Counted from the first letter of the stretch, positions 1-20,408 are shown. The stretch is DNA of 32,000 bases from Candidatus Saccharimonadota bacterium (GCA_965228485.1 OZ245819.1:690001-722000); one strand, 5' to 3'. A program made the numbers and translations. Notes: generated by a model not told the origin, from the sequence alone.

Positions 1-370
1 GTTCACTTATTAAAAGATTTTTGAAAGGCTCTTTTCCTAGGGAAAAATACGAAGAATCATTGGTTGATCTCACAAGATCCAATAGATATTTTTTTTTATT
101 CTCTCCCTGCAAAACCTGCTTAGAAACTCCTTTTGAATTAAGGTATAAATTTAAATTATTAGCATTGGGTGGTAATGGCTGTCGAACAATTAATGTCTCA
201 TTATCTGAGAGGTGCTTCCAAGTCTCGACTACCTCTATGTTTGCACTGCCTCCCTGAATATCAATACGAATTGATTTTGACGATGGTCCTGACGCAAAAA
301 CACTTCCAAAACTGGTCATCAAAATTAGAGACAAGATAGTACGAAACCAAAAATGAGATGACATAGCCAT
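1..370 (-). CDS. Secreted hypothetical protein, N-terminal part only (ORF runs off the left edge)
   Basis: Absent from the supplied ORF track because no stop codon lies in the window. Reverse-complement reading from ATG at 370 (alternative ATG at 364) stays open for 123 codons down to position 1: MAMSSHFWFRTILSLILMTSFGSVFASGPSSKSIRIDIQGG... The N-terminus looks like a signal peptide. The ORF is co-directional with the PKD gene and starts 34 nt downstream of it. IRIDIQGGSANIEVVETW...QPLPPNA weakly resembles VIT-type domains; this is unverified. Confidence 0.5.
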   Translation of the reverse strand, partial: MAMSSHFWFRTILSLILMTSFGSVFASGPSSKSIRIDIQGGSANIEVVETWKHLSDNETLIVRQPLPPNANNLNLYLNSKGVSKQVLQGENKKKYLLDLVRSTNDSSYFSLGKEPFKNLLISE

Positions 371-404
371 CTCATTTTAGAGTAAATTTTGTGTTCGACA
401 AGTT

Positions 405-2849
405 TTAACGAACCGTAATTGTTTTAGATTGCTCTGAAATAATCCCGTTCTGATCAACCAATCTCATCTTTAGGATATATTCACCTGGATCAATATAAGT
501 ATGCCTTTGTGGATCCGGTCTGAAAACTCTATATGGTTCACTTCCATCTCCAAAATCCCAAACATATTCCCGAATAATTCCTTTAGGAATAAATGGAGTA
601 GCTTTAACTTCCAATGGTGCTGGCCCGGCACTCGGAACAACTTCAAAGTCAGCTTTAACTACTGGAGCACGGGCCGAAACAATAATCTCATCAGTGGAAG
701 TTTTTCCTTCTGAAGTAAGCACTGTCATACGAACCACATAATTTCCTACTTTTTCAAATAAGTAATCAATCTGTGCTCCATAATTAAGCGGTTCTTGTCC
801 TGGAAATTCCCAAATATAATTTACGATTTCGCCTTCATCAGCAGAAGAACCGGAACCATCAAATGTTATTGTAATTGGAGCCGGACCTGCTGGAGGATCC
901 GCTACGATTTTTGCAACCACCCCTGAACGATCAACCTGTATTGGAAACAGTTTTTCATGTTCTACATTATCTGAATCTACAATTACAAGCTTTACTTCAT
1001 AGTTACCTGGATCGCGAAAAATATGCTGAACCACTTCTCCATACTGATCCTCAATTCCATCTGATTGGAAGTCCCATCTCCATTCTAATGGATCTTTAAT
1101 TTTTGACTGACTAGAATCAAAAGTTACCTCGAATGGTACCACTCCCTTGAGTATTTTATCATTCTTCTTCAGTTCTGGAGTTGTCTTAATTACTACCTCA
1201 GCATTCAAATCTGCCTTCTCCACAACAATAGTCTTTTCCGTTCTTTGTCGTTCTCCTAAATCATTTTGGACCGTCAAAGTAACTTTATAGGCTCCTGCTT
1301 CTCGAAAAACTCTCTGCAACTTTCGTCCTAAAACAGGTTCTTCTTCTCCTTCTACAAACCACTCATAACGAGTGATAAGCCCTTCTTTAACAAAGGACTG
1401 AGAACCATCAAGTAAAACTTTTAATGGAGCAAATCCTTCTAAAGGATCTTTACTACTAATCACAGCCTTCAGATCACTTTCTGGCGTTTGAACCGTAATA
1501 ATTTGCTCCGCCACATTTGTATCATTATTTCTCCCTGTCACTCGTAATCTTATTTTATACTCACCGACCTTAGTAAAAGTCTCCAAAACTGTTGGTGTTT
1601 CCTGCCTAATTTCAAATTCACCATCACCATCCAAATCCCACTCATATAACACAATTTCACCATCTGGATCTTTGGATTCTGCGGCATTAAATTCGACTTC
1701 TAGAGGGAAGGCTCCAGACTCTGGAATAGCGGTTACTTTAGCTACTACAGCTTCATTATTAATAATTACTTCCTTCTGTGACTTAAATGAAATTTCTCGT
1801 CCTTCTACACTCGAAAAATAAAAAATCTCAGCCGTCACAGGATAACGTCCATTATTTTGTCCTCTATCTAAAAATCGATGAGAAACCTTATCTCCAGAAG
1901 CATCATATTGTCCATCTCCATCAAAATCCCAGTTAATCTGCCGAATAACTGAACGATTAATCTGTGGATAAAGTCTTTCTCCAATATCAAAGTTTACGGT
2001 AATTGGGGCACTAAGTCCAATCACACTTTCTGGGTCAGTCACAATTAAGGAATTATCAACCGCTCTACCTCGTGCTTCAGTTGCTTGGTCAATAATAAAA
2101 TAAAAGAAAAACCATGCCCCACAAGAAGTAAGGAATAGCATTAAATAAGCAAAAAATCGGAATAATAGACTTCTTTTATTTACATCTGTTTTCTTAGCAA
2201 TTCCCCACCTAAAAATGAAAACCAGTGTCGTCACTAAAAAGATTAATGCCACTATTCCAAAAATGGCATTGGTCATCATTAATAATAAATTTTTCAATCC
2301 AATAGCCTCGATCCCAAGCGTTTCAAATAAAGGATTAGAAGCATTTCCAGTCCATAAAGCCCAAAGCAAGGCTCCATAGAAAGCTAACACAGCAAATACC
2401 CCAATTCCTAAAAGTAAAAGTAAAAATATTTGAGGAGAAGAGGCTCCACGAGAAGGCTCTTCTGGTGGTTCTGTTTGAGGAGGCCTTGTTTTTGGCGGAG
2501 CTGGAGGTGCGGGAGCTGTAGCTGGCTCATTACTTTCCGCAGGTTTTGATGCTTCCACATCAGCCTCGGTACGTTTTGGATTATTAGGAAAACTTTTCAA
2601 CTCTGATTCAGAGCTTGTTTTCGGCGTATTAATATCAGTTACTGACTCGACTTTGATTTCTCCAACATTAGAAGCCTCTCCTTGTGACTCCACCGACACT
2701 GGTTGTGCAGGAGTCGAAGGATTTGATTCCAGATTAAATCCTTGAGGGTTATTTGCATCAGACAAAGATGGTAAACTTTCCGTATTCTGCGGAAGATTAT
2801 TCTCTGCAGAATTTTTAGAATTAGGATTCACGGCATCTTTTTCTGTCAT
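405..2849 (-). CDS. Membrane protein: ~135-aa Pro-rich disordered N-terminus, 3 predicted TM helices, about six PKD-like domains
   Basis: 814-aa ORF. The N-terminus is low complexity (PATAPAPPAPPKTRPPQTEPPEEP) with no signal peptide. Three hydrophobic helices follow (IFLLLLLGIGVFAVLAFYGALLWALW; LLLMMTNAIFGIVALIFLVTTLVFIF; FFAYLMLFLTSCGAWFFFYFII). Six PKD signatures come after them: INWDFDGDGQYD, YEWDLDGDGEFE, YEWFVEGEEE, WRWDFQSDGIED, YIWEFPGQEP, YVWDFGDGSEP. Confidence 0.8.
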   Translation of the reverse strand: MTEKDAVNPNSKNSAENNLPQNTESLPSLSDANNPQGFNLESNPSTPAQPVSVESQGEASNVGEIKVESVTDINTPKTSSESELKSFPNNPKRTEADVEASKPAESNEPATAPAPPAPPKTRPPQTEPPEEPSRGASSPQIFLLLLLGIGVFAVLAFYGALLWALWTGNASNPLFETLGIEAIGLKNLLLMMTNAIFGIVALIFLVTTLVFIFRWGIAKKTDVNKRSLLFRFFAYLMLFLTSCGAWFFFYFIIDQATEARGRAVDNSLIVTDPESVIGLSAPITVNFDIGERLYPQINRSVIRQINWDFDGDGQYDASGDKVSHRFLDRGQNNGRYPVTAEIFYFSSVEGREISFKSQKEVIINNEAVVAKVTAIPESGAFPLEVEFNAAESKDPDGEIVLYEWDLDGDGEFEIRQETPTVLETFTKVGEYKIRLRVTGRNNDTNVAEQIITVQTPESDLKAVISSKDPLEGFAPLKVLLDGSQSFVKEGLITRYEWFVEGEEEPVLGRKLQRVFREAGAYKVTLTVQNDLGERQRTEKTIVVEKADLNAEVVIKTTPELKKNDKILKGVVPFEVTFDSSQSKIKDPLEWRWDFQSDGIEDQYGEVVQHIFRDPGNYEVKLVIVDSDNVEHEKLFPIQVDRSGVVAKIVADPPAGPAPITITFDGSGSSADEGEIVNYIWEFPGQEPLNYGAQIDYLFEKVGNYVVRMTVLTSEGKTSTDEIIVSARAPVVKADFEVVPSAGPAPLEVKATPFIPKGIIREYVWDFGDGSEPYRVFRPDPQRHTYIDPGEYILKMRLVDQNGIISEQSKTITVR

Positions 2850-2873
2850 TTTATTTTTTATTTATATTATCTG

Positions 2874-5800
2874 TTATTCCTCTAGGACCCCATCAGTTGT
2901 CTCTTCTTCAACTTTTGGCATCACCTTAATTGTGAGAGAATCTTCACTTTCGGTCAACCCATCTGATATATTCAGCTTTACTCGATAGAAACCAGAATCG
3001 CGATAGGAGAAGTTAATATTCTGTCCAGTTAGCACTCGTCCATCATCCAAATCCCACTCAAAGAAAACCGCCTGACCGTGTTCTGTAACTGATTGCCCAT
3101 ACAAAAAAAGCTTTGTATTAGTTGAAATAACCATATCCGCAATCAAACCTTCAAAGTAATTTCTTTGCCCAAAACCAATCGCCTTAAGCGAATCCATATC
3201 CAAATTATCTAGTTCAGCTTGAAGTTTTGCACGCTCTTCTTCATCGGTTACATTTTCAAGCTCTGCCAAAAGTGAAGCTCTGTGAGATTCTAACTCCGCT
3301 TCAAATTCTGCTTTCATAATTTCTCTAAGAGAATTTTCTACTCGTTTGAGCAACACGGCATTGTAATCAACTTCTTCTAATTCATCTTGAAAGAATATCT
3401 TTTGATCATTTGTCGTTGAAGTTGCTAGCTTTTGAGTAAATTCATCTTTCTTCAGAACAAGATCGTTCTTCACATTCCCAATAGTTAAAGCTCTTGCATT
3501 TGGATCGTAAAATTTCTCCAACAACTGCTGTTGTCGAGTTACTGACTGAATCTGTCCCAGTAGTGCTTTTTTCGTTGCGTCTTCTTTTGAAGAAACATAG
3601 GTACGTGTCAAATTCAACCGTCGATTAACCAAAATTCTTTGAGCTTCTTCTAGAGTGTTATCTTCATTAATTCCAGAATCCTCCAGACCCGAAAGCGTTT
3701 GCAAACTATTGTCTAATACCAAAATCTTAGAACGCAAAGCCTCTAGTTTTACTACATCTTTTTCCGCTCGAAAATCATTAACAATTTCTGTTTTTTTAGT
3801 TTCCAACTGATCTCTAAGATCGTAAACCGTCATATCAGGAGACAGTCCTGATTTATCTAAATCTTGAAGCAATTTAACCTGAGTTTTTAAATCACTAGAT
3901 TTACTTAATAAAGAGGCCGCTTGATCAGATGAGCTTCCAGCAACCATTGAGTTTACTTCTTTTTGATACTGATTAATCTTCTGTTTTGCCGTTACTAAAG
4001 GCATATCATCTAAACTAATCTCATCCGTTGAGAGGTATCCTAACTGCTCTAAAAGAGCCTGAACCTCGGCTAAACGAGCTTTTAAAACTTCGGCTTGAAC
4101 TGTATCTGTTTCACTTCTCAGTTGTTGTTCCAGAGCATCTTTTTCTGCTAACAACTCTTTCATACGATCATCTAGATAAGCTTTAAATTCAGTCTCATCA
4201 TCTAACCCATACTCCGAAGTCATTTGAGTTCGGGCTAAATCTAGCTGAATCTGAGCTAAACGATCAAGATTTGATAACTGATCATCAATGGTTTGAATTT
4301 GCCCCTGAATAAGAACTTTTGTTTGATCATCTTCTGCTTCGGATAATCGAGTTTCTAATTCAGCTTTTCGCTCCAAAAGTCCATCTTTATATTCCTTTGC
4401 GAACTCTCCCAATAAATCTGTGCTTGCCAGATACCTCTGCATGGCCTGAATATCTAGACCAATTGCAAACTTCTTCTCTCTATCAGTTTCCTTGGCTTGA
4501 TCTTCTTTAAGTGAATTTATTTTTTCATTCAAATAAGTCTTTTGTTCTTCAATAATTTTCTGCCTAAGCATATTAAGCTCATTCTCCAAAAGATCTCTTT
4601 CTAGTTCGTTGATTTCTCCACTCGTGTCTTCTTCTGCGGATGCCTTGGCCAACATTTCTAAATCTTGTTCAGCTTTATCAATTTGTCTTTCCAATGCTAA
4701 TCGAGCTTTTTCTTCTTGAGTTGCTTGAAGCTGTTTTAATAGCTCTTCTCGTTGTTTTTGTACTCTTTCTTGCTCTTTGAGAGCGATCTCTCGAGAAGCT
4801 TTTTGTCTTTCTAAGGAAACTTGCTTCGCTTTTTCTGCCTGAGCACTAAGAGCTGATATTTTTTCTTCAATAGATTCTGTATCTGCTGGGGCCGCAATTT
4901 TAACCTTCTCTAAAGCTTCCGTTTTGGCTTTTAAGAGCTCTACTTCTTTTTGCAAAGCCTCTTCTTCAAGTGATGGCGGTTTTTCTTGATCGATTCTATC
5001 AACAATTACATCGGCAATCCCTGTAATCTCATTAATTCCATCACTTACTCGAACTTTTATTTTATATTTACCTGGTTTTTTATAACGATAGGCAGGATTC
5101 TGGATAAACATTTTTCCGCCATCTCCCATATCCCAGTTGTATTCTAATCTATCAGCTTCTGGATCTTCTGCTGTTAAATAAAATCTAAAAACGGTATTAA
5201 CATCTCCTCTTTGGCTTGGAAGTATTCCCTTTAGCTGAACTTTTGGTGGAAGATTTTCTTTTTGTACCACCTCTTTGGCTACAACGGAAACTACGATGGA
5301 TTCTTCAACCGTTGCAATCCCATCACTCACTCGAACCGAAACCGTCTGAGTTCCTGGCTCAGTAAAGCGATACTGAAATTGTGGAGCATAGAATTTTCTA
5401 CCATCTTGGAGATTCCATTCATAACGAAGATAATCCTTATCGACATCTGAAGCTTCCGCAAAAAAAGTAAACATCGTATCAACATCTCCCTGATTACCTG
5501 GCACAACACTAATTCGTGCTTCTGGTGAAGTGTTAAATGATTCTTTTTCAAAAGGAAAACTTTCAGCACTATCAAAAGTATAAGTTGCATAACGATCATC
5601 CGTTACTGTAACGCGAAAACTATATATATGACTTCCTGGATAACGGCTCAAGTCAAAGTAAGCTGTTGGCTCTCGAACTACTTGAGAAAGAAATAGCCGT
5701 CCCTGTTCTAGAATTTCAAATTTATAACTGATAATACTTCCATCTGGATCAGAAGCATCAGCTTTTACATTAATCTGCCCTGGCACTTTAGATGCTGAAG

Positions 5801-6404
5801 TAAAGGTTAAAGATTTTACCGTTGGTGGCTGATTTTCTATCACTACTTTCAAATTATCTTGATCACGCAAATGAGGTCTATCAGAATCTTGAATCGTTAG
5901 TGAGACTTGATAAGTTCCTACTCGATTAAATACTAGGGGTACTTGGGATTCGGCATAATCTCTTCCATTAACTCTCCAGTTTGCCACAAAGGCTCCTGAA
6001 TCTCCTCCTGCAACTCCAAATGGTCGTGATTTTAAATCAATTTTTTGACCTAGTTGTGCTCTAATAACGCCTCCTGGAATAGTAACCCCATCAACTCGGG
6101 CTTCAATAGAAGCTGTTGGTTTATCCATATTATGGACCATTACAGACTTCGTCAACTCATTGGTTTCTCCAGAAGCAGCAATAACTCTTAAGGTTACTTC
6201 TTGAGGTCCATCTTCACGAAAAGTATACTGAACAATCTCCCCGTTAATTTTCACGTTCCCTGGAAACACCCACTCAAAAGTTTCACCAGCACGGCTTGTC
6301 GCTCTGAATGTTGCTGGTCTTCCCTTTATAATCATAGAGGCGGCCTCTACTGTGCCGCCTACTATTGCTAGTATAATAAAACCTAATACCAGTAACCGTT
6401 TCAT
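2874..6404 (-). CDS. Secreted giant protein: signal peptide, ~5 PKD-like domains, ~590-aa interrupted coiled coil, C-terminal PKD-like domain
   Basis: 1176-aa ORF with signal peptide MKRLLVLGFIILAIVGGTVEAAS. PKD-like signatures: FEWVFPGN, YEWNLQDGRKF, YNWDMGDGGKMF, and C-terminal FFEWDLDDGRVL. The central region is E/K/L/Q-rich with heptad-like character (EEEALQKEVELLKAKTEALEKV ... RAKLQAELDNLDMD). Confidence 0.8.
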   Translation of the reverse strand: MKRLLVLGFIILAIVGGTVEAASMIIKGRPATFRATSRAGETFEWVFPGNVKINGEIVQYTFREDGPQEVTLRVIAASGETNELTKSVMVHNMDKPTASIEARVDGVTIPGGVIRAQLGQKIDLKSRPFGVAGGDSGAFVANWRVNGRDYAESQVPLVFNRVGTYQVSLTIQDSDRPHLRDQDNLKVVIENQPPTVKSLTFTSASKVPGQINVKADASDPDGSIISYKFEILEQGRLFLSQVVREPTAYFDLSRYPGSHIYSFRVTVTDDRYATYTFDSAESFPFEKESFNTSPEARISVVPGNQGDVDTMFTFFAEASDVDKDYLRYEWNLQDGRKFYAPQFQYRFTEPGTQTVSVRVSDGIATVEESIVVSVVAKEVVQKENLPPKVQLKGILPSQRGDVNTVFRFYLTAEDPEADRLEYNWDMGDGGKMFIQNPAYRYKKPGKYKIKVRVSDGINEITGIADVIVDRIDQEKPPSLEEEALQKEVELLKAKTEALEKVKIAAPADTESIEEKISALSAQAEKAKQVSLERQKASREIALKEQERVQKQREELLKQLQATQEEKARLALERQIDKAEQDLEMLAKASAEEDTSGEINELERDLLENELNMLRQKIIEEQKTYLNEKINSLKEDQAKETDREKKFAIGLDIQAMQRYLASTDLLGEFAKEYKDGLLERKAELETRLSEAEDDQTKVLIQGQIQTIDDQLSNLDRLAQIQLDLARTQMTSEYGLDDETEFKAYLDDRMKELLAEKDALEQQLRSETDTVQAEVLKARLAEVQALLEQLGYLSTDEISLDDMPLVTAKQKINQYQKEVNSMVAGSSSDQAASLLSKSSDLKTQVKLLQDLDKSGLSPDMTVYDLRDQLETKKTEIVNDFRAEKDVVKLEALRSKILVLDNSLQTLSGLEDSGINEDNTLEEAQRILVNRRLNLTRTYVSSKEDATKKALLGQIQSVTRQQQLLEKFYDPNARALTIGNVKNDLVLKKDEFTQKLATSTTNDQKIFFQDELEEVDYNAVLLKRVENSLREIMKAEFEAELESHRASLLAELENVTDEEERAKLQAELDNLDMDSLKAIGFGQRNYFEGLIADMVISTNTKLFLYGQSVTEHGQAVFFEWDLDDGRVLTGQNINFSYRDSGFYRVKLNISDGLTESEDSLTIKVMPKVEEETTDGVLEE
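3200..4970 (-). other. Coiled-coil stalk segment inside the 1176-aa protein (approximate bounds)
   Basis: Residues ~479-1070 are dominated by E, K, L and Q with helical repeat character. Several short breaks occur (for example GLDIQAMQRYLASTDLLGEF, GYLSTDEISLDDMPLV, FYDPNARALTIGNV). Bounds were read from the translation and not computed with a coiled-coil predictor. Confidence 0.6.
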
Positions 6405-6413
6405 CTATAATGA

Positions 6414-8123
6414 TTAATTAATTTCAAAATCAATCGGAATAGTAGTGGTAATTGGAACCGTCAAAGTATATGGTTCCGATCGTAAAAACGATCCGTTTCT
6501 TGATTCAACTACTACTAGTTCCACACTTTTATCTCCAACACTATCAAATTCGTAAGTCATTTCTGGCGAACTGGCTTGTTGGAAATCTCCATCAAAACTC
6601 CAGAAATATGTTAGCCCTTGATTTATCCCTGAGATATTTTTACTCAAATTCCCATTAAATCGAATTTCAGCAGGCTTGAGCGTATTACCCGTAGAATCAA
6701 AAGTAAATTCTGCTACTGGCTGATTTCCAAGAACTGTAAAGGTTTTCGTGAAAGTATCACTATCACCTACTACATTCTCAATTTCTAGAGTAATTTCATA
6801 TTCTCCTGACTCACTAAACGATACCTCAACATTTTTACCAAAAGCTTCTTCAAAACATCCTCCTCCAGCATTGGCTGCACAAGTCCATTTATAACTTTTA
6901 ATAGATCCTACCAATACCGTTGAAGAACCTCCATCAAGCGCTACTTTTTCGTCTACAAGTAGCTGAGATTTACTGGCTGAAAATTGAGCATCAGTTCCTC
7001 CTACTGTTAGTGTTTTTTGAGTCGTAAATTGTTGACCATCAGAAGTCTGAACAACTCCCCGAATATTATAACTTTTTTCTTCTCCAAACTGATGAGTAAT
7101 TGTTGCTGTTGGATCAATTGTCGTATCTAGAACGGATTGAGTACGATCTCCAAAATCAATTACTACTACCGCCTGAGTACTAAGACCAAAAGTAATTCCA
7201 TTACGCGCAGCATCAGGGCTCGCCATTACCGTCCCCCCAAAATCATTCACTCCTTCTCCAGATAACAGTAATACGCTTGCAAGGTTTTGGGTAACACTTC
7301 CCGTGCCACTATTATCTCCAACATTTACAACCGAAACAGTTCCATCTGGATTAACGACTGTTTGAAGATTCGAACCATTACCAGTAATAAGCCCTGTAAT
7401 GTCTCCATTAGAGTTATTCCCTATCAGATTCGTATTGTTTGAATTAGTGCCTCCATCATTACTAATATCATTTCTGTCGTCAGTTCCGACTCCCGCATTT
7501 TTAATAACCGTATTCACAATCGCAAATGATGCTAGTACTACTAAAATACCGATAACGGCATAAATAAGTATTTTTTTAGATTTTTCGATATTACTATCTT
7601 CTCCAGCTGAAGCTACATACAGATAACCAGCATAAATTACCATGGCTACAGCAATAAGCCCAAGGAATGTCAGCGTAAAATTCAAGACATTAAGAATATA
7701 TTGTCTTAAAGAAGTATTTTGGCCAATGGTGTTAAATTTTTCTGGATCTGGCAGTTCAAACCGTCCCGTTGGTGTTACTCCCGTACCAGTATTTACCTGA
7801 TCAAAAATAGAATCAAAATCCTGCATGATAACTACGCTGCTTCCAGAATTAAATCCTGTATTATTTACTGAATATCTGACACTACTTCCTCCGCCAGTAA
7901 TATCATTACCAATACCTCGAATATTACCACCGATTCCTCTAATATCGCCTGTAATTCCTCCAATAATTCCTCTTACTCCACTAACCACATTAGCCACCCC
8001 ACTAACGGCTTGACCAACCTGGTTTAAACCTCCCACAAAGTCTCCAAAACTGAAGGCATGAGCCGTTGGAGTAACGGTCCACAGCGAGAAAGAAAGAACG
8101 ACACCGGTAATAAATTTTTTCAT
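6414..8123 (-). CDS. Fusion protein: signal peptide, Gly-rich repeats, VirB2/TrbC-like two-helix pilin module, N/G-rich linker, ~3 PKD-like domains
   Basis: 569-aa ORF with signal peptide MKKFITGVVLSFSLWTVTPTAHA. Gly-rich repeats: GGITGDIRGIGGNIRGIGNDITGGG. The hydrophobic hairpin FTLTFLGLIAVAMVIYAGYLYVASAGEDSNIEKSKKILIYAVIGILVVLASFAIVNTVIKNAG (nt ~7495-7715) is paralogous to the C-terminus of the upstream gene. PKD-like signatures: VIDFGDRTQ, YKWTCAANAGGG, YFWSFDGDFQ. Confidence 0.75.
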   Translation of the reverse strand: MKKFITGVVLSFSLWTVTPTAHAFSFGDFVGGLNQVGQAVSGVANVVSGVRGIIGGITGDIRGIGGNIRGIGNDITGGGSSVRYSVNNTGFNSGSSVVIMQDFDSIFDQVNTGTGVTPTGRFELPDPEKFNTIGQNTSLRQYILNVLNFTLTFLGLIAVAMVIYAGYLYVASAGEDSNIEKSKKILIYAVIGILVVLASFAIVNTVIKNAGVGTDDRNDISNDGGTNSNNTNLIGNNSNGDITGLITGNGSNLQTVVNPDGTVSVVNVGDNSGTGSVTQNLASVLLLSGEGVNDFGGTVMASPDAARNGITFGLSTQAVVVIDFGDRTQSVLDTTIDPTATITHQFGEEKSYNIRGVVQTSDGQQFTTQKTLTVGGTDAQFSASKSQLLVDEKVALDGGSSTVLVGSIKSYKWTCAANAGGGCFEEAFGKNVEVSFSESGEYEITLEIENVVGDSDTFTKTFTVLGNQPVAEFTFDSTGNTLKPAEIRFNGNLSKNISGINQGLTYFWSFDGDFQQASSPEMTYEFDSVGDKSVELVVVESRNGSFLRSEPYTLTVPITTTIPIDFEIN

Positions 8124-8128
8124 ATTGA

Positions 8129-8674
8129 TTAAAAAGCAGCTTGCATAACAGTGTTAACAATGGCGTAAGAAGCGAGAATAACAAGAATCCCGATTATACA
8201 CCAGATAATAATTTTCTTGGCTGACTCCATACGACTGTCGTCTCCAAGTGACGTAATATAAACGATCCCTGCCCAGACTAGAGCCACAACGGCAATAACT
8301 GCTGTGACAGCCAAGAGGAAGTTTGTCCATCCAATAATAAGTTCTTTAATATCTCGTTCTTTAGAAACGCCATCATCTAAATACTGTTCTACAACATTAG
8401 CGCCTCCTTCTAGGCCTGGACCATTAAAAACTGGTCCCCCATAAGGAAGAGCAATATTTCCATTGTTAGAAGTCGTTCTGGTCGTCCCTGCCTGGTTCCC
8501 TCGTTGACGAAGTGTTTGGTTTATATAAGAGTCCAATTGACCACTCAGCTGTTGATTACTCGTACTACTACCAATATTTTGCTGAATAAAACTATCAAAA
8601 TCCGCAGCCTCTACTTTCCCAGAAAGCAAAACAGCTACGACTAAACTAAAACATAGAACTAAAGCTTTTTTCAT
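8129..8674 (-). CDS. VirB2/TrbC-like (T4SS-pilin-like) small secreted two-TM protein
   Basis: The track ORF starts at 8725, but the internal ATG at 8674 gives a clean signal peptide MKKALVLCFSLVVAVLLSGKVEA/ADF. The C-terminus is a two-helix hairpin with a short charged loop: FLLAVTAVIAVVALVWAGIVYITSLGDDSRMESAKKIIIWCIIGILVILASYAIVNTVMQAAF. Signal peptide plus terminal hairpin is the VirB2/TrbC pilin topology. The family assignment is from memory, without an HMM run. Confidence 0.6.
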   Translation of the reverse strand: MKKALVLCFSLVVAVLLSGKVEAADFDSFIQQNIGSSTSNQQLSGQLDSYINQTLRQRGNQAGTTRTTSNNGNIALPYGGPVFNGPGLEGGANVVEQYLDDGVSKERDIKELIIGWTNFLLAVTAVIAVVALVWAGIVYITSLGDDSRMESAKKIIIWCIIGILVILASYAIVNTVMQAAF

Positions 8675-8708
8675 TTGTGTTTTTGTTATTCTGCCTATTT
8701 TACCACAG

Positions 8709-8717
8709 ATTATAACA
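8709..8717 (-). promoter_or_regulatory. Extended -10 promoter element (TGTTATAAT) for the pilin/PKD operon
   Basis: The minus strand reads ...TTGAATTGTGTTATAATCTGTGG..., which contains a TGnTATAAT match. It lies ~35 nt upstream of the ATG at 8674 and just downstream of the purL-C stop at 8744. No convincing -35 element was found. Confidence 0.4.
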
Positions 8718-8743
8718 CAATTCAAAAGAAAAAAAATTTTGTC

Positions 8744-9766
8744 CTAGAAAATATCCCTTAAAGAATTTTTCCAAACTGAGGTCAGTTCAACAGTATCGGA
8801 TTCAAACACAACTTCATTTGCAGATTTAATCACAACCTCACCTTTCGTCACTCTCCCCAAACGCATAGCTCCAGTAATGTGAGATAAATTTTCTGATGAA
8901 GAAACTAAAACCCCAAGCCCCTCTCCAAATAGTGTCTCTGGTAAGTCCTCGTCAATATTCAATTCAAAACCCAAACTATTTTTTACAGCTGATTGAAGCG
9001 CTGTAGCCCAAACACCCCCTGGCACAATGGGCAAGATCGAATTTAATTGCTTATTTTTTAATGCTTCTCTTAGTTCATTACAAAATCCATCAAAAACTTT
9101 ATAATTTACTGCTGGAAGATTTGTATCAGAGGCTTCAACATATTCTAAAAATTCACTTCCAGACAGAGACAACGGCAATCCTAAAAACCAAATATTATTT
9201 CCCTCATCAGAAAATGATAAAGGAGATACTGCATCCACTTCATCTACTCGAGCAAAAACTGATACCAAAGCACTTGGCGGCACAGACCTCCCTGAAGACT
9301 CATTATATAGAGAGACATTTCCTGAAACGATTGGAATCTCCAATTTTTCACACGCCATTTTTACTCCCTCAATTCCCTGAACAAGCTCAGCCATTTGCTC
9401 CTTTTTTTCTGGATTCCCAAAATTCAAACAATCCGTAGCTCCTAACCAACTCCCTCCCACAGAAGCTGTTTTTAATGCTGCCTCACAAATAGCTAATTCA
9501 GCAGCAAGCTTAGGATCAATTAGGGCTCTGTAAGGATTACCCCCCGTTCCAACAACTACTCCTATTTCAGCCAGATCGTCATCTAATTCTGAAAAATCTC
9601 TAAAAGGCACTACGACACTGGCAGCAAAATCTCCACGCTCACAAGCCGTATTCCCCTGAACATTCTTATCGTACTTTTCATAAATTGGTAATCGACTAGC
9701 AACGTTAGGTCGAGAAAGGATATCTACTAAACACTGGCTAATTGAGATTTTTTTCATCACTCGCAT
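8744..9766 (-). CDS. purL: Phosphoribosylformylglycinamidine synthase II (PurL), C-terminal half only (second PurM-like repeat)
   Basis: 340 aa. The N-terminus LVDILSRPNVASRLPIYEKYDKNVQGNT matches the conserved LL..PNIASK..Y.QYD start of the second half of small PurL. It continues with GGNPYRALIDP, ATDCLNFGNPEKKEQM and IPIVSGNVSLYNES, which are AIR-synthase-type motifs. The start codon is its own ATG, facing a 50-nt divergent intergenic region. Confidence 0.75.
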   Translation of the reverse strand: MRVMKKISISQCLVDILSRPNVASRLPIYEKYDKNVQGNTACERGDFAASVVVPFRDFSELDDDLAEIGVVVGTGGNPYRALIDPKLAAELAICEAALKTASVGGSWLGATDCLNFGNPEKKEQMAELVQGIEGVKMACEKLEIPIVSGNVSLYNESSGRSVPPSALVSVFARVDEVDAVSPLSFSDEGNNIWFLGLPLSLSGSEFLEYVEASDTNLPAVNYKVFDGFCNELREALKNKQLNSILPIVPGGVWATALQSAVKNSLGFELNIDEDLPETLFGEGLGVLVSSSENLSHITGAMRLGRVTKGEVVIKSANEVVFESDTVELTSVWKNSLRDIF

Positions 9767-9816
9767 TGTGCTTATTTTGATGAAAAAAACAAAAATATAT
9801 ATTAAACTTTTCTCCG

Positions 9817-10179
9817 ATGCGAATAGATAAATGGATATGGGCTGTCAGAATGACAAAGACTCGAACCTTAGCCGCCAAACTCTGTGATCAGGGAAAAGTC
9901 TTACTCAATGATCAAAAAATAAAAGGATCCAAGAATATTAATCTGGGAGACATAATTACCGTCCATAAAGAAGTCACCCTAAAATATGAAGTTATTGGAT
10001 TTATAGAAAAACGAGTCGGAGCAGAAAAAGCACGAGAGTTTTATACTGATCATAGCCCTATTGAAACCATAGAAGGCAAAAACAGTGACTCCAGCCAATA
10101 TTGGGGGCAACGAGAAAAAGGCGAAGGTCGCCCAACAAAAAAAGACCGCAGAGCTATTGAGAAGATTAAAAATTGGTAG
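9817..10179 (+). CDS. hslR: S4-domain RNA-binding protein, Hsp15/HslR-like (ribosome-associated heat-shock protein)
   Basis: 120 aa. MRIDKWIWAVRMTKTRTLAAKLCDQGKVLLNDQK is the S4/Hsp15 alpha-L motif. The C-terminal GRPTKKDRRAIEKIK resembles the RRPDKKERRDLLRFK tail of E. coli Hsp15 (recalled from memory). Confidence 0.65.
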   Translation: MRIDKWIWAVRMTKTRTLAAKLCDQGKVLLNDQKIKGSKNINLGDIITVHKEVTLKYEVIGFIEKRVGAEKAREFYTDHSPIETIEGKNSDSSQYWGQREKGEGRPTKKDRRAIEKIKNW

Positions 10180-10185
10180 AAAAAA

Positions 10186-10210
10186 AACCTCAGAGCAGAG
10201 CCCTGAGGTT
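10186..10210. terminator. Bidirectional intrinsic terminator between convergent genes
   Basis: Stem AACCTCAG (10186-10193) pairs with CTGAGGTT (10203-10210) around a 9-nt loop. An A-run lies on the left and a T-run (TTTTTTATT) on the right. It sits between the hslR-like stop (10179) and the stop of the minus-strand gene (10235). Confidence 0.65.
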
Positions 10211-10234
10211 TTTTATTAATCAAATGAAGAAATA

Positions 10235-12964
10235 CTATTGTGCTTCACAACGCATAAACTCTTTTCTCTCTTCACAAACTTTTGAAAAGTCTTCACTGTC
10301 TTCGTAACACTCATTCCATTCCCTCCATAAAACTCGACACTGAGTATTTTCTCGGCATTCCATCTCGTCATAAATCTGATTACAAGCTTTTTTATCTAGC
10401 TTAAGTCTGTTTACTTCTTCTACATCACTCCATGTATGAGCTTCAATCACATTTGGAGAAATGGTGAAGAAATTATCTCCAATGTAGATAATTCTTTGAA
10501 TGTTGTATTCATGATTTCCCCATCTACGAGTATTTTTATCTGACCAATAATCATCACTATAGTGAGTGGCTTTTCCTTTCAGTTGAAAACCTTCTTCTAA
10601 GCTCACATCATAAACAAAAGCTCCGTTGTAGCTCTGGCGAGCAGGCTGATAACCATTTTGAGCCGCTCCATCTTTTGTCATAACAGTAATTGGTAAGGCC
10701 ATAATTCCCTCAGCTTTATCAAAAAGTAATGCCTTATGATTATTAAGCACTTCACTGTAACTTCCCGTATCTCCAATAACCTTTTTATGAATTTCTTTTG
10801 GATTATTCACGTTTGATACATCAAAAATAGCTAACTTCACTCCCAAAACTTCATCAGGACTCAATCGATCATCCTCTTCTGCTCCTTCTTTTACCTCTTT
10901 CCCAAGACCAATAAGATGATTCTCATCGTAAGGATGTAGATAATCAGACCATCCTGGAATTTTCAATTCTCCCAAGACTTTTGGATTAGTAGGATTTAGA
11001 TCAATCACAAATAAGGGATCTACATTTTTAAAGGTTACCATATAACCTTTATTCCCCATAAATCGAACCGATTTGATATTCTCTCCTGGAGCAACCCCAT
11101 CAACCTTTCCGGTTAATTTTAAATTTTTATCCAGAATGTTCATCATCGATCCCTCTTGATTCATTTGTGTGGCAATTCGGAAATAATCCCCCTGTTCGCT
11201 CATTGAAAACTGATTTAATACGGAACCATCTACTTCTCCCTTCGCCACAAAATCAATGTTATTTTCATCCAGAGCAAACTTATAGATTTCCGTCACAGGA
11301 TTCCACTGCCAACCATCCCAAGAACGCCCCGTTATAAATCGTTCTTTGTGTTTTGTTCTCGTCACATAGAGATTGTTTGTAGAAGCATAAATTTGATTCC
11401 CACTTCCGAGCATCATAATTCGACCAACTTTTTCACTCGTATCTTTGGTATTAATTGCCCCAATAATTAAGAAATTTGAATCTTCAAAATTTGGGAAATA
11501 ATGAATATCCTGGCACGGAGCAATCATTTTTTCTGATGCATTGGCAGAATCTTCCATTATTGGAAGGTCTGTGTTTCTTAACATTGGAACTGGTCTTCCC
11601 CAATACCAATTTTGGTATTTATTGGTAACCAAATAAACTACATCACCAATCTTCCGAGATTGAGTGTAATTCCCTTCTAAGCTCACTTTTCTAATCTCTG
11701 TTGGATTTGATCGATCTGAAATATCAAAAGAGATAAGTGTCGTTAGCTGCTTATTTGTCCCTCCTGGATATGGCATCCCTGGCATAACCATTAATGCCAC
11801 TTCTGCTCGGGACTCAATTAAACGAGCATCTTCAGCAGAATCATCAAGAAAAATATCCGCATCATCAAAAAACTCTGGATCTTCCCATTCAAGCTCTTCT
11901 TCCAAAGGCATTGACTCCTTAACAGCTGGATAAACATTATACGAATTAGTTTGTCCTACTATGGTTAGAATATCTCCATCTACATACATCTCTCGTGGCC
12001 AAAAACCCTTGTCAGCAACAGACAAATTCGCCACTTCTTTCATTTGATCTGATGGAAAAGCTTTTACGATTCGAACGGCATTTTCTTTGATCATATAAAT
12101 ATGAGAGCCATCATTTTTAATGATATCGGCTTCATCAACACCGAATTCTTGAATATTTGTAGTAGAAAATTTTTCGGACCCCCCGCCTCCAATAGAAGAC
12201 TGAGTAGTAACTCCTTCTGATCTAGCCATAGCAGGCATATCGGATTCCATCATCTCCATATCCATAGCATCATCCATAAATAAGGCATTTCGACCATACA
12301 TTCCCTGCCCTTGTCTTTTTTGAAATTTTTTCATCTGCACATTCAGTGCTTCACAAGATTCAATTTTTGGTAAAACCAAATCCGATTCCCCAACTTCATT
12401 TCCTGTATCGATACCCCAAATCATTTGAGCCATCTCTCCTCTGCTAATTTTCTTAGCAATATCAGAGACTGACCCTGGCACGATTCTTTCACGACCGAGC
12501 GCTTGAGTAAACGGCTTAAACCACTCTGCTGAATCTTCTTCTTCAACTTCAACCTCTTTAACCTTGGCAATAATTTTGCTGGCTTCAGCAAAATTTATTG
12601 TATCACCTGGCTTAAAACTTCCATCTGGATATCCTTGGACAATACCCTTTTTCGTTGCCTGACAGATAATATTGTAGAACCATTGACCAGGTCTTACATC
12701 ATCGTAATCCACAATTGAATCACAAGTAGTACTATCTTTCTCAGAAGACTCTAGAACGATTTTTAAAAACTCAGCTCGGTTAATATCCTGTTCTGGCTTA
12801 AAAGTTCCATCTTCATATCCCTCTACCACTCCTTGATCTACCAAATATTGAACTGCCTTTGAGGCATTTGTTCCTTTGGCGTCTAATAATTCTGGAGATA
12901 TCTGATTGGCTAACGCCAAAACAGGCACCACTAGAGCAAAGGCCGCTAAACTAAATTTTTTCAT
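10235..12964 (-). CDS. Secreted cell-wall protein: signal peptide, 3 SLH-like repeats, beta-propeller domain (COG4880/Beta_propel-like), Cys-rich C-terminus
   Basis: 909 aa with signal peptide MKKFSLAAFALVVPVLALA. SLH-like repeats: AVQYLVDQGVVEGYEDGTFKPEQDINRAEFLKIVL and KKGIVQGYPDGSFKPGDTINFAEASKIIAK. FSTTNIQEFGVDEADIIKNDGSHIYMI is typical of the secreted beta-propeller family (recalled). The last 50 aa contain 7 Cys. Confidence 0.7.
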   Translation of the reverse strand: MKKFSLAAFALVVPVLALANQISPELLDAKGTNASKAVQYLVDQGVVEGYEDGTFKPEQDINRAEFLKIVLESSEKDSTTCDSIVDYDDVRPGQWFYNIICQATKKGIVQGYPDGSFKPGDTINFAEASKIIAKVKEVEVEEEDSAEWFKPFTQALGRERIVPGSVSDIAKKISRGEMAQMIWGIDTGNEVGESDLVLPKIESCEALNVQMKKFQKRQGQGMYGRNALFMDDAMDMEMMESDMPAMARSEGVTTQSSIGGGGSEKFSTTNIQEFGVDEADIIKNDGSHIYMIKENAVRIVKAFPSDQMKEVANLSVADKGFWPREMYVDGDILTIVGQTNSYNVYPAVKESMPLEEELEWEDPEFFDDADIFLDDSAEDARLIESRAEVALMVMPGMPYPGGTNKQLTTLISFDISDRSNPTEIRKVSLEGNYTQSRKIGDVVYLVTNKYQNWYWGRPVPMLRNTDLPIMEDSANASEKMIAPCQDIHYFPNFEDSNFLIIGAINTKDTSEKVGRIMMLGSGNQIYASTNNLYVTRTKHKERFITGRSWDGWQWNPVTEIYKFALDENNIDFVAKGEVDGSVLNQFSMSEQGDYFRIATQMNQEGSMMNILDKNLKLTGKVDGVAPGENIKSVRFMGNKGYMVTFKNVDPLFVIDLNPTNPKVLGELKIPGWSDYLHPYDENHLIGLGKEVKEGAEEDDRLSPDEVLGVKLAIFDVSNVNNPKEIHKKVIGDTGSYSEVLNNHKALLFDKAEGIMALPITVMTKDGAAQNGYQPARQSYNGAFVYDVSLEEGFQLKGKATHYSDDYWSDKNTRRWGNHEYNIQRIIYIGDNFFTISPNVIEAHTWSDVEEVNRLKLDKKACNQIYDEMECRENTQCRVLWREWNECYEDSEDFSKVCEERKEFMRCEAQ

Positions 12965-13086
12965 TAAAATGAATTTTAAGAATTTATATCTGTTTTTATT
13001 AACTAAAAACTAGATCAATTTGTGACATAAGTAAAGAACCATATTTAATAAAAAGCTTTATTTTATGAGGGTTTGTGTTTTTTATT

Positions 13087-14775
13087 TTATCCCGCTACAC
13101 GATACACTTCTTCAAGGGTTGTCTCACCTAAAAGGACCTTTCTAAATCCATCCTCAAATAGCGTTAGATAATAAGGCTGTGTTTTAGCTACAAACTCTCT
13201 CAAATCAATTTCCGTAAGCCCCTCTGCCACACGAGCCCTCAGTTCATCAGAAAAATCAACCGTCTCACAAATCACCGTTTGATCTACAAATCCTGTGTGA
13301 GAACATTTTTCACACCCCTGTGGCTCATAAATGTGGATGTATTGAATATTCCCGTCTTCATCAACCTCAACTGAAAGCGAATCCAAAATATCTGGATAAA
13401 CTTCAATCACCCGAGAAAATGCTTCTTTTGCCTCTGGGTGTTTGTTGAGATCAAATTTAACTTTTTTACGACAGTGTGGACATATTTTTCGTACTAATCG
13501 CTGAGCGAAAATTGCATTAATAGCCGCCGCAATATTGAAGTATTCTAACCCTAAATTATTTAGACGAGTAATCGCTCCCAAAGCGGAATTTGTATGTAGA
13601 GAACTAAAAACTACATGACCAGTAAGAGAGGCCTCTGCGGCAAGTTTCGCTGTAGACAATTCTCGAATCTCACCAATAAGAATAACGTCTGGATCATGTC
13701 TCAACAAAGCCTTTAAGCCGTTTGAAAAATTATACTCAGAATTTTCATCGACTTGGGATTGAGTTACATTATCTAGATGATATTCAATCGGATCTTCTAA
13801 AGTTACTAATTTTTTCTCGGCTTCATTAAGCTCCGCAAGCATAGAGTATAATGTTGTTGTTTTCCCACTTCCTGTTGGACCGGTCACCAAAACCATCCCA
13901 TTTTTATGCCCGATCGCTTTTCGAATACTACTTTCAATATGAGGCTCAAATCCGAGGTCACTAAAAGTTTTGATTCCTTTCCGACTATCAAGTACCCGCA
14001 TAACAACCGATTCAAAAAATTCTGTTGGTAGGGTTGAAACCCTTAAGTCTACATCACGATTATTAGCTCTAAATGAGATATGACCATCTTGAGGAATGTG
14101 AAAAATATTCGATTTCATTCCTGCGATATACTTAATATGCGAGACTAGTTTTTCAGCTCTGTCTTTAGGTAATGGGCAAATATCATGAAGAATCCCATTA
14201 ATTCTAAATCGAAGTAATCCTTTCTCTTCATAAGGCTGTATATGAATATCAGAAGCCCTAACCTGCAGAGCGGTAATTTCAATCTCGTTAAGCGCTTCTT
14301 GTGCCTGAAGGTTTTTCAGTTTTGTTTCCAAATCTCCGAGCCCTATGAACTGTTCCTCAAAAGTCTTACCATCTTTCTCATCAAATTGTTCTTTCAACTC
14401 TACTTTTTTTCGGTTAATGAGCTTAGAGCCATAATGCTTTAAAATCTCGTTAAGTCCGTTCTCAGAACAGACATTCATCTCGATCTCAAAACGATCAACC
14501 TCAAGTCTGTTTACAATTTTTTGTACCACTCTATCTTCTGGATTAACGGCTGCTAAACGAAGCTTAAAACCACTTCTAAAGAACGGCACCAGTTCAGCAC
14601 TTCGAGCTTCAGACTCTGATACAAACTGTAAAACTTCTGGGTTTATCGGAAACTTAGAAAGATCTATGTAGTTAAGCTGAAGCTTAGTCGCTAAGTCTTG
14701 CGCTTCTCTTTCTTCAAATTCTCGATTGATGTCACCAACAGGATTTCCTGTTGTTAAGTTTTGAGATGAATCCAT
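13087..14775 (-). CDS. pilB: Type IV pilus assembly ATPase PilB (GspE family)
   Basis: 562 aa. N-terminal T2SSE_N-like region, Walker A VTGPTGSGKTTTLYS, Asp-box/Walker B DPDVILIGEIRE, His-box LTGHVVFSSLHTN, and a tetracysteine motif CPHCRKK...CEKCSHTG. Confidence 0.9.
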   Translation of the reverse strand: MDSSQNLTTGNPVGDINREFEEREAQDLATKLQLNYIDLSKFPINPEVLQFVSESEARSAELVPFFRSGFKLRLAAVNPEDRVVQKIVNRLEVDRFEIEMNVCSENGLNEILKHYGSKLINRKKVELKEQFDEKDGKTFEEQFIGLGDLETKLKNLQAQEALNEIEITALQVRASDIHIQPYEEKGLLRFRINGILHDICPLPKDRAEKLVSHIKYIAGMKSNIFHIPQDGHISFRANNRDVDLRVSTLPTEFFESVVMRVLDSRKGIKTFSDLGFEPHIESSIRKAIGHKNGMVLVTGPTGSGKTTTLYSMLAELNEAEKKLVTLEDPIEYHLDNVTQSQVDENSEYNFSNGLKALLRHDPDVILIGEIRELSTAKLAAEASLTGHVVFSSLHTNSALGAITRLNNLGLEYFNIAAAINAIFAQRLVRKICPHCRKKVKFDLNKHPEAKEAFSRVIEVYPDILDSLSVEVDEDGNIQYIHIYEPQGCEKCSHTGFVDQTVICETVDFSDELRARVAEGLTEIDLREFVAKTQPYYLTLFEDGFRKVLLGETTLEEVYRVAG

Positions 14776-14781
14776 CCCGCC

Positions 14782-14790
14782 ATTATACCA
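14782..14790 (-). promoter_or_regulatory. Extended -10 element (TGGTATAAT) immediately upstream of pilB
   Basis: The minus strand reads TTCTGGTATAATGGCGGGATG. Only 6 nt separate the -10 hexamer from the pilB ATG at 14775, which implies a leaderless or near-leaderless mRNA if this promoter is used. Confidence 0.4.
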
Positions 14791-14819
14791 GAAAACCCCT
14801 AAAAAATAAAGTGAGGATT

Positions 14820-15161
14820 CTATCTATTTTCAAGAGCCTCTAGGCGTGCTTCAAGTTCTTTGTTTTGGTGTTTCAAAGCTTCAATTTCAGCATCTTTTTC
14901 TGCTTTTAGATCCTGAATTGCCTTCGCTAAAATGGCATTAAATGACTGATATTTAACGGATTCCACTTCACCTTCATTTCCATAAATCGCTAAATCTGGC
15001 ACAAGGCCAGCCACTTCCTCAGCGATTAAACCATAATCATGTTCTTCATTATTCTTCCAATCAAATTTAACAGGGATTAGATTTTGCACTGTCTCTAAAC
15101 CAAGATCTAAATCAATAATATTCAGTAACAATAACGACGCCAGATCTCCCGCCTGCATCAC
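14820..15161 (-). CDS. Tail-fibre C-terminal intramolecular-chaperone-like (peptidase S74-like) domain plus coiled coil; different frame from the upstream fibre gene; start uncertain
   Basis: LETVQNLIPVKFDWKNNEEHDYGLIAEEVAGLVPDLAIYGNEGEVESVKYQSFNAILAKAIQDLKAEKDAEIEALK matches the remembered S74 chaperone-domain pattern (L.pV.F.wk....GfIAqEv..v.Pe.v........v.Y..l...li.a.qeL). The frame opens at 15176 and overlaps the 3' end of the 15112-16986 ORF by up to 50 nt in the +1 frame. The only starts are GTG 15161, ATG 15158, or an internal TTG. Confidence 0.55.
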   Translation of the reverse strand: MMQAGDLASLLLLNIIDLDLGLETVQNLIPVKFDWKNNEEHDYGLIAEEVAGLVPDLAIYGNEGEVESVKYQSFNAILAKAIQDLKAEKDAEIEALKHQNKELEARLEALENR

Positions 15162-16986: not shown

Positions 16987-17080
16987 TTATTTTTTTATTT
17001 CGCTCCCCCAGAGTAGTTATTTTTATAATTTTGGAAAACCATCTAATGATCCTAAGGCGACCTGAAAGTAAATCATTTTT

Positions 17081-17110
17081 TTGACGGTAACACATTAAAC
17101 CCCCTACAAT
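17081..17110 (+). promoter_or_regulatory. Sigma70-type promoter for the pilus operon (TTGACG - 18 nt - TACAAT)
   Basis: TTGACG at 17081-17086 and TACAAT at 17105-17110. The -10 element ends 27 nt upstream of the ATG at 17138. Confidence 0.5.
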
Positions 17111-17137
17111 AAGCTCTGACTGGTAAAAAAATAAAAA

Positions 17138-19862: not shown

Positions 19863-19864
19863 AA

Positions 19865-20407: not shown

Positions 20408-20408
20408 A

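Follow-up and report, generated by a model that had tools for sequence, protein, structure and literature searches.

A survey by Quinonero-Coronel et al. in 2025 (PMC12102498), which used the families PF18895 and PF04956, reported VirB2-like pilins in 1,948 assemblies of Patescibacteria and 441 arrays, each with 2-11 genes. Such arrays are essential in Ca. Southlakia (PMC12102498, PMC10633639, PMC12857230), in which a series of predicted pilin genes lies within an essential type IV secretion system (T4SS) cluster (Wang et al. 2023, PMC10633639). Of 3,035 assemblies of Patescibacteria, 2,417 encode VirB4; the class Gracilibacteria is reported to have its T4SS components away from virB4 and to lack any recognizable VirB6 (PMC12102498). 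The wording of a review from 2025 does not go beyond a 'potential to elaborate conjugative pili' (PMC12857230). Many surface proteins of the candidate phyla radiation (CPR) are rich in PKD domains, and giant PKD-bearing surface proteins occur in Vampirococcus (PMC8080830). Here we describe a five-gene operon, A-E, located at the left end of a 32,000-nucleotide stretch of DNA from Candidatus Saccharimonadota bacterium (GCA_965228485.1 OZ245819.1:690001-722000; the whole stretch is referred to as the window), in which pilin-type modules are joined to immunoglobulin (Ig)-like and PKD domains. Loci of relatives are designated L001-L010 and L081-L085.

A, B and probably D each contain a pilin-type hairpin, with large Ig/PKD ectodomains in B and D, while C has no anchor and E is a wall-binding vWA protein. 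The operon is of the known VirB2-like pilin array kind, within which it stands out by the covalent fusion of pilin to Ig domains, by a third module tethered to the membrane and by a rod whose repeats make it tunable. We tentatively read it as encoding an adhesion complex of the cell surface, rooted in the membrane and specific to its lineage, in a Patescibacterium of the Gracilibacteria/Peribacteria type, a reading that falls only a little short of probable. The first-pass annotation of this DNA, made by a model from the sequence alone, had called the operon a candidate undescribed system, which was an overstatement because VirB2-like arrays were already on record in Patescibacteria. Descriptions of pilin-PKD fusions or of this cassette were not found in published full text, and the accessions of the relatives are not in the supplementary tables of PMC12102498.

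Organization of the operon

1-370, minus strand: gene E, cut by the window edge, 123 N-terminal residues visible
405-2849, minus strand: gene D, 814 residues
2874-6404, minus strand: gene C, 1176 residues
6414-8123, minus strand: gene B, 569 residues
8129-8674, minus strand: gene A, 181 residues
8709-8717, minus strand: extended -10-like element TGTTATAAT, a perfect match, read directly, 35 nt upstream of the start of gene A

The five genes run in the same direction and are separated by gaps of 5, 9, 24 and 34 nt. Each product is exported or membrane-embedded, with signal peptides in A, B, C and E and transmembrane (TM) helices in D. The first-pass annotation had given the same spacing and the same export of every product, and the analysis of the individual proteins agrees with its descriptions of A as a small signal-peptide protein ending in a two-helix hairpin, of B as a paralogous hairpin fused to three PKD-type domains, of D as a 3-TM protein with a Pro-rich N-terminal tail and six PKD-type units, and of E as a further signal-peptide protein cut by the window edge. 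The start of gene A was placed at the ATG at 8674; a longer open reading frame (ORF) extends to a TTG at 8725, and a 100%-identical database protein is 181 residues long. The GC content of the operon is uniform with that of its surroundings. Because long ORFs stay intact when read with table 11, the genetic code is probably the standard one, which fits Peribacteria-type lineages better than UGA-recoding Gracilibacteria.

The pilin-type hairpins of A and B

8132-8359, minus strand: T4SS_pilin hairpin of A, residues about 106-180 (Pfam)
7497-7709, minus strand: T4SS_pilin hairpin of B, residues 139-209 (PF18895, AlphaFold2)
6417-7271, minus strand: three Ig/PKD-like domains of B, residues 285-569 (AlphaFold2, PKD_4)

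The signal peptide of A (residues 1-23) is followed by a variable Ser/Thr/Asn-rich ectodomain, a conserved PYGGPVFxGPGLEGGA motif and the C-terminal hairpin. The Pfam family T4SS_pilin (PF18895) matched A with 45.0 bits, above the cut-off of 26.6, and TrbC (PF04956) matched with 27.7 bits, just under the cut-off of 27.9. In addition to the signal peptide, A has two TM helices. The AlphaFold2 (AF2) model, obtained with family alignments, shows a confident hairpin of helices 86-141 and 146-180 with a predicted local distance difference test (pLDDT) score of about 88. Homologs of A with a precomputed PF18895 annotation number 43, mostly with PF04956 as well. A is nearly a bare hairpin; its short ectodomain of about 80 residues makes it more than a small protein that is essentially hairpin only. 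Its sequence profile matched no solved pilin in the Protein Data Bank (PDB); a ligase match in that search was dismissed as spurious.

B comprises a signal peptide, a disordered Gly-rich N-terminal region, the hairpin, a disordered linker (residues 210-281) and three Ig/PKD-like domains. It scored 28.1 bits against PF18895, also above the cut-off of 26.6, and 49 bits (E 5.6e-13) against PKD_4, and a signal peptide and two TM helices were identified. In the AF2 model, hairpin helices 139-171 and 176-209 occur together with two disordered stretches and three Ig-like domains with pLDDT >90. The best structural matches of the Ig array in the PDB are extender modules of the SiiE, GhpA and MpIBP adhesins, and 24 homologs have the same architecture as B. 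Comparison of the A and B hairpins by hhalign (99.8%, E 3e-30) yielded 45% identity over 74 columns, and by sequence the two are clearly paralogs. Their assignment to the VirB2/TrbC type in the first-pass annotation is consistent with both lying above the PF18895 cut-off and with A lying at the TrbC borderline. Residues of the hairpin and loop are kept in both A and B beyond the needs of hydrophobic anchoring.

Gene D carries a probable third, degenerate hairpin

2085-2327, minus strand: degenerate pilin-type hairpin of D (TM2-loop-TM3), residues about 175-255 (profile comparison)
408-2057, minus strand: six PKD domains of D, residues 265-814 (Pfam and motif count)

D begins with a Pro/Ser-rich tail (residues 1-140), followed by TM1 (141-159, also listed to 163), a conserved external loop with the sequence GNxSNPLFETLGIE, the TM2-loop-TM3 hairpin (TM segments 195-213 and 235-253) and six PKD domains. 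The match to PKD_4 has 197 bits (E 3.8e-59). Pfam matches five stretches, and six W-D-F-type motifs are counted by eye, four of which were found by a regular expression. A sub-threshold match to DUF6264, spanning the Pro-rich tail and the TM helices, was treated as compositional.

The TM module is strongly conserved among 12 orthologs, including the GNxSNPLFETLGIE loop and the motif LKxxLLxLTNxIFG, and judged from these sequences the conservation appears to exceed the needs of a passive anchor. A word-indexed homolog search with this module returned three fragments only; an exhaustive profile search was used instead and identified 51 family representatives in 1.84 billion proteins. Several of these match PF18895 below threshold on the TM2-TM3 segment (best E 2.7e-4), and weak PF18895 matches occur in 3 of 13 D orthologs. 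The hairpins of D and B align in register by hhalign (E 7e-4, probability 26%) and have in common the pattern F-[NE]-x-[IL]-G...L-[KR]-x-x-[IL]-L...N. A distant, fully collinear homolog of D at L009:10013-12133 (28% identity over 696 columns, E 1e-54) exceeds the PF18895 cut-off with 27.1 bits; the match covers its residues 80-144, and residues 185-253 of D are aligned with this segment. The TM2-loop-TM3 segment of D is best read as a degenerate third pilin hairpin. On this reading the operon has three pilin modules and falls within the definition of a Patescibacterial VirB2 array given in PMC12102498: A and B are adjacent, and D follows after one non-pilin gene, C. B (569 residues) and D (814 residues) are larger than proteins consisting of a small hairpin only, since both carry large folded extracellular arrays. 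The positive-inside rule, applied to the loop charges, places the Pro/Ser-rich tail of D and the hairpin loops in the predicted cytoplasmic position and all Ig/PKD arrays outside. A 600-residue protein downstream of C in L083 was considered as a D ortholog and rejected (13% identity, no Pfam match).

Gene C encodes a PKD-rod-PKD protein

4995-6335, minus strand: five Ig/PKD-type domains of C, residues about 24-470 (Pfam)
3171-4976, minus strand: helical rod of C, about ten 58-residue repeats, residues about 477-1078 (autocorrelation, composition)
2910-3152, minus strand: terminal PKD domain of C, residues about 1085-1165 (Pfam)

The sole hydrophobic segment of C is the signal peptide; the protein is secreted and has no TM helix or anchor of its own. 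PKD_4 matched C in 4 stretches with 143 bits (E 3e-42), and Big_9 and K319L-like matches were also obtained. The rod is rich in Glu, Leu, Lys, Gln, Ala and Asp, with 5 Pro and 14 Gly per 602 residues. Fourier power at period 3.5 showed no overall enrichment in the rod and did not separate it from the beta-rich regions, and similarity autocorrelation was used for the heptad test in place of the simple Fourier test. The dominant lag is 58 (z 4.9), followed by lag 7 (z 3.0) and lag 11 (z 2.4). In C orthologs the 58-residue repeat is very strong (z 18.3 with a harmonic at 116 in L001; z 8.7 in L002). The PKD domains and the long helical rod of the PKD/~590-residue coiled coil/PKD protein proposed in the first-pass annotation were thus found, but the coiled coil reads as 58-residue repeats with a modest heptad signal. 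From its composition and periodicity, the rod is a predicted helical, repeat-built structure of tunable length, and the following lengths were obtained:

0 residues of helical charged sequence: the B-C fusion forms of L005, L008 and L010
about 80-300 residues: L082-L084 and L004
about 540-600 residues: the window and L081
over 1000 residues: L001 and L002

Gene E and the end of the operon

The visible part of E consists of a signal peptide and the start of a VIT-like domain; these 123 residues gave no match to Pfam. Comparison by hhalign with an N-terminal profile of the genes downstream of D in seven relatives identified E as their counterpart (97%, E 7.7e-11). The E orthologs are 794-891 residues long and contain VWA_2/VWA and C-terminal SLH domains; one of them has a weak VIT match, and the L081 ortholog has SLH. 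By this homology E is the start of a predicted VIT-like/vWA/SLH wall-anchored protein. The left flank beyond the window edge was deduced from relatives. The gene following the E ortholog is a Crp-family regulator together with SecY in L081 and L001, and arginyl-tRNA synthetase in L007, so that the operon of the closest relatives stops at exactly five genes; T4SS core genes just past it, a possibility raised with the first-pass annotation, were not found there. The closer relatives have E; L082 and L084 lack it, and in L006 it is shifted by five genes.

Conservation in relatives and search for T4SS genes

The order A-B-C-D is kept in L004-L008, L010 and L081-L085, as established by scanning a genome collection and by looking up exact products. 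Their D and B proteins have 35-66% identity with those of the window, and the source metagenome-assembled genomes are labelled Gracilibacteria, Peribacteria or Patescibacteria. The housekeeping genes flanking the cassette are unrelated and vary from locus to locus. Conservation of the neighbourhood, which the earlier annotation had proposed to check, thus extends to about a dozen loci for A-B-C-D and to the closer ones for E. In L005, L006, L008 and L010, B and C form one polypeptide in the same reading frame. Hairpin proteins of L004, L006, L007 and L082 have very different ectodomains on either side, in forms of 300-640 residues.

The 32-kb window and annotated or scanned flanks of up to 10 kb on each side in L001-L010 and L081-L085 were examined for T4SS genes by Pfam scans. 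VirB4, VirB3, VirB6, VirB8, secretin, sortase and usher were found neither in the operon nor in the window or the flanks of the relatives, and for the operon and window the scans agree with the earlier statement that VirB4, VirB6, VirD4, secretin, sortase and usher are missing from the operon. The conclusion drawn there, that the locus does not match a conventional T4SS, does not follow from the missing VirB4, because T4SS genes are usually dispersed in Gracilibacteria (PMC12102498); for the same reason the absence of VirB4 is no proof of an independent machine. The only T4SS-type gene near any cassette is at L006 17577-20711 (minus strand), which encodes a 1044-residue VirD4-like coupling protein (TrwB_AAD_bind 31.9 bits, T4SS-DNA_transf 25.6 bits) and is convergent with the E ortholog. 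With respect to a sortase-type or chaperone-usher pilus, no LPxTG was found in A-E and no sortase, usher or chaperone family in the window. With respect to a type IV pilus (T4P) pilin, A-E contain no N_methyl match and no prepilin motif by regular expression.

Two of the related loci have further features. In L009, a more distant Gracilibacteria locus, at least 10 T4SS_pilin genes surround an 8-PKD protein and the D-like pilin-PKD protein (4873-15456), and the product of L009:5297-6241 has 314 residues with three tandem T4SS_pilin domains; VirB4 was not found among the L009 flank genes scanned. L008 contains a diversity-generating retroelement (RVT_1 and bAvd, 16498-19174) 2 kb downstream of the E ortholog, with a 140-nt template-like repeat whose copies have 89% and 67% identity. 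An action of this retroelement on the cassette was rejected, as the repeat copies fall in small downstream ORFs and not in cassette genes.

Comparison with known systems

The closest described systems are the Patescibacterial VirB2 arrays, for example Ca. Southlakia epibionticum SEML1_0006-0019. The operon shares with them the PF18895 and PF04956 families, divergent pilin-module genes in tandem or one non-pilin gene apart, a monoderm CPR host and the lack of a relaxase context. It differs in that Ig/PKD arrays of 300-550 residues are joined to two of its three pilin modules, one of which comes with a further TM helix and a cytoplasmic tail. In addition, a PKD-rod-PKD protein is interleaved and a vWA/SLH protein follows, and virB4 and other T4SS genes are not adjacent. 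The conjugative pilins TraA (F), VirB2 (Ti) and TrbC (RP4) have the same signal peptide, two hydrophobic helices, short basic cytoplasmic loop and outside termini, and TrbC is the family to which A is a borderline match (27.7 vs 27.9 bits). Unlike these pilins, the proteins described here have no sequence match to solved pilins, are much larger, lack adjacent VirB/Tra machinery and belong to a monoderm envelope; any polymerisation of theirs would be putative.

The tandem Ig-like beta-sandwich arrays resemble those of SiiE (Salmonella), MpIBP (Marinomonas) and GhpA (the grappling hook of Aureispira), which hold a binding end off the cell. Those adhesins are single giant polypeptides exported by type I or type IX secretion systems, whereas in this operon several small proteins, rooted by pilin hairpins and with a helical repeat rod as spacer, share the reach between them. 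A functional analogy exists to the streptococcal M protein and the stalks of trimeric autotransporters, which are rod-like spacers with variable repeat number, and to vWA-tipped sortase pili (RrgA), in which vWA is a candidate binding module on a wall-attached protein. The analogy is functional only: unlike these systems, the operon has no LPxTG, sortase or outer-membrane anchor, and C is unanchored.

Proposed assembly and alternative explanations

In the proposed adhesion complex, the hairpins of A, B and D would come together in the cytoplasmic membrane, forming either a hetero-oligomer or a short polymer like that of VirB2, with D, which would be unable to leave the membrane, as the base. 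C would dock on the Ig array of B, because B and C are one polypeptide in four relatives, and the number of C repeats would set the reach of the distal PKD domain. E may couple the assembly to the wall or add a binding site of the metal-ion-dependent adhesion site (MIDAS) type. The likely function would be attachment to a host cell, a partner cell or a surface. An extruded fibre formed from these genes is possible, and the fibre and the episymbiotic role suggested in the first-pass annotation would both be conjectural.

Several points weigh against this adhesion complex. We infer hairpin co-assembly, docking of C on B and adhesion from architecture, gene fusion and analogy. D itself has no match to PF18895, and its hairpin compares to that of B with a probability of only 26%. 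E may be an add-on and not a core part, because it is absent in the distant L082 and L084 and displaced in L006. A fold search would not separate a pilin hairpin from other helical hairpins because a two-helix hairpin is too simple to discriminate: Foldseek comparison of the A model with the PDB gave no match with E <1, the hits were generic helical hairpins, and the archaeal conjugation pilin 8dfu was at rank 36 (E 4.8, TM-score 0.66 on the target). PKD domains are also found in proteases, S-layer proteins and glycan-binding proteins, and adhesion is therefore not the sole possible role.

The genes might instead encode a true extruded VirB2-type pilus with A as the major subunit, B as a minor subunit with its Ig domains on the shaft or tip, and D as the base, assembled by a VirB4-based T4SS encoded elsewhere. 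This explanation, which we regard as unlikely but worth keeping in view, accords with the membership of the hairpins in the T4SS_pilin hidden Markov model, the TrbC borderline score and the VirD4-like gene convergent with the E ortholog of L006. In solved F-type pili both pilin termini reportedly point outward (work of Costa et al. in 2016), and a C-terminal Ig array could thus be displayed. An extruded pilus would also fit the presence of VirB4 in 2,417 of the 3,035 assemblies, the scattered T4SS parts of Gracilibacteria (PMC12102498) and the essential pilin array of Southlakia (PMC10633639). However, VirB4, VirB3 and VirB6 are missing within about 10 kb in about a dozen loci, D is extended by a further TM helix and a cytoplasmic tail, and no literature report of a VirB2-type pilin with folded domains of 300-550 residues was found. 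Moreover, a Patescibacterial VirB2 pilus has not yet been seen, and the review cited above goes no further than a potential (PMC12857230). It is improbable that the pilin-type hairpins form the polymerising core of an unseen kind of surface fibre, in which VirB2-type subunits are covalently fused to Ig/PKD arrays, D is the membrane-tethered base and C, as a secreted rod with a variable number of 58-residue repeats, extends the reach. With no dedicated T4SS ATPase in the locus, such a fibre might be T4SS-independent, and the VirB2-like pilins of Patescibacteria, widespread and in Southlakia essential, would then be a general adhesin-display platform and not secretion-conduit parts.

A looser arrangement, in which independent membrane- or wall-anchored adhesins are merely co-transcribed and the hairpin is a convenient anchor spread by duplication without a joint structure, would account for the very different ectodomains of hairpin proteins in L004, L006, L007 and L082, for the dispensability of E in some cassettes and for the abundance of PKD-rich surface proteins in CPR (PMC8080830). 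We give it a small chance, since the gene order is strict despite protein identities of 35-50% and changing flanks, B and C have been fused repeatedly, as would suit a physical link, C lacks an anchor, and the hairpin and loop residues of A, B and D are conserved past anchoring needs. An envelope scaffold that links the cytoplasmic membrane, wall and S-layer and sets their spacing, and whose partners in the wall would be E, through its SLH domains, and the SLH/beta-propeller protein encoded nearby, is very unlikely. The SLH domains of the E orthologs, the SLH and Beta_propel protein adjoining the cassette in the window and in L081, and the variable rod length are in its favour, but rods of 600 to >1000 residues are estimated to extend far beyond the envelope thickness, the rod is wholly absent in close relatives that keep the rest, and E is missing from several cassettes. 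The operon is least of all an accessory module of the T4P system (PilB, PilC, PilN, PilO and pseudopilins, 13087-20951) found 4.4 kb upstream of it in the window and likewise placed in L081. This idea is largely refuted because the adjacency is not conserved, being lost in L005, L008, L010, L082, L083 and L084; in addition, A, B and D lack the prepilin N-methylation motif, and unrelated genes, for an S4 protein, the SLH propeller and the purL C-half, lie in between.

VirB2-like arrays are among the few gene sets that a cultivated Patescibacterium has been shown to require for living as an epibiont. The cassette, read as a membrane-rooted adhesion complex, offers an architectural clue to the role of the pilin array, with the hairpin module joined to Ig arrays, a tunable spacer and a wall-anchored vWA protein, apart from a T4SS ATPase gene. 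This arrangement suggests that one of the roles of the pilin modules is in display at the surface or in attachment. Only about 50 clusters at 50% identity in 1.8 billion proteins make up this narrow family, and the cassette therefore matters as a model for module function and not as a widespread system.

Upstream element and transcription

The element TGTTATAAT falls within the 69 nt that separate gene A from the gene for the purL C-half. It is a plausible promoter element that alone is without statistical significance, because TGNTATAAT was found 2 times in the window vs 1.28 expected. A general promoter scan of the window yielded fewer sites than in shuffles. No terminator was found between the purL C-half and gene A, and read-through from purL into the operon is therefore possible. 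The extended -10 element that the first-pass annotation had assigned to the operon as its own is thus present at 8709-8717 as a plausible candidate. The only other TGNTATAAT in the window is at 14782-14790 (minus strand, TGGTATAAT) and ends 6 nt before the pilB ATG at 14775; the position of TGGTATAAT suggests that the pilB transcript may be leaderless or near-leaderless.

Neighbouring genes in the window

The T4P cluster at 13087-20951 comprises PilB (13087-14775, minus strand) and, divergent from it, PilN-like, PilO and PilC genes with three N_methyl pseudopilins (17138-20951, plus strand), the pseudopilins being located at 19365-20951. PilM and PilD were not seen in the window. Between pilB and pilN, the gene at 15112-16986 (minus strand) encodes a 624-residue signal-peptide protein with Gly-rich repeats (GIGTTxP...L.V.G motif) and a Gly-rich C-terminus; it has no match in Pfam, and the local GC content is 0.49 vs a background of about 0.38. 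Between the cassette and the T4P cluster, the gene at 10235-12964 (minus strand) encodes a 909-residue wall-anchored protein with SLH and Beta_propel (PF09826, E 9e-156) domains, which is also present in L081.

The gene purL (FGAM synthase) is apparently split into two parts on the same strand, 12 kb apart, at 8744-9766 (minus strand) and 21821-23122 (minus strand). The N-half contains linker, AIRS and AIRS_C domains and the C-half an AIRS domain; the T4P cluster, the SLH/beta-propeller gene and an S4-domain gene lie between the halves. The purL C-half is directly upstream of gene A also in L005, L008 and L010. The ORFs flanking the N-half, at 20952-21824 (plus strand, 290 residues) and 23176-24405 (minus strand, 409 residues), have no Pfam match. 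Scans of the window for tRNA, Rfam families and tandem repeats were all empty. Near the right end of the window, the gene at 30925-31935 (minus strand) encodes a 336-residue protein in which the HicA-toxin domain occupies only the C-terminus (residues 286-328), an unusually long HicA fusion.

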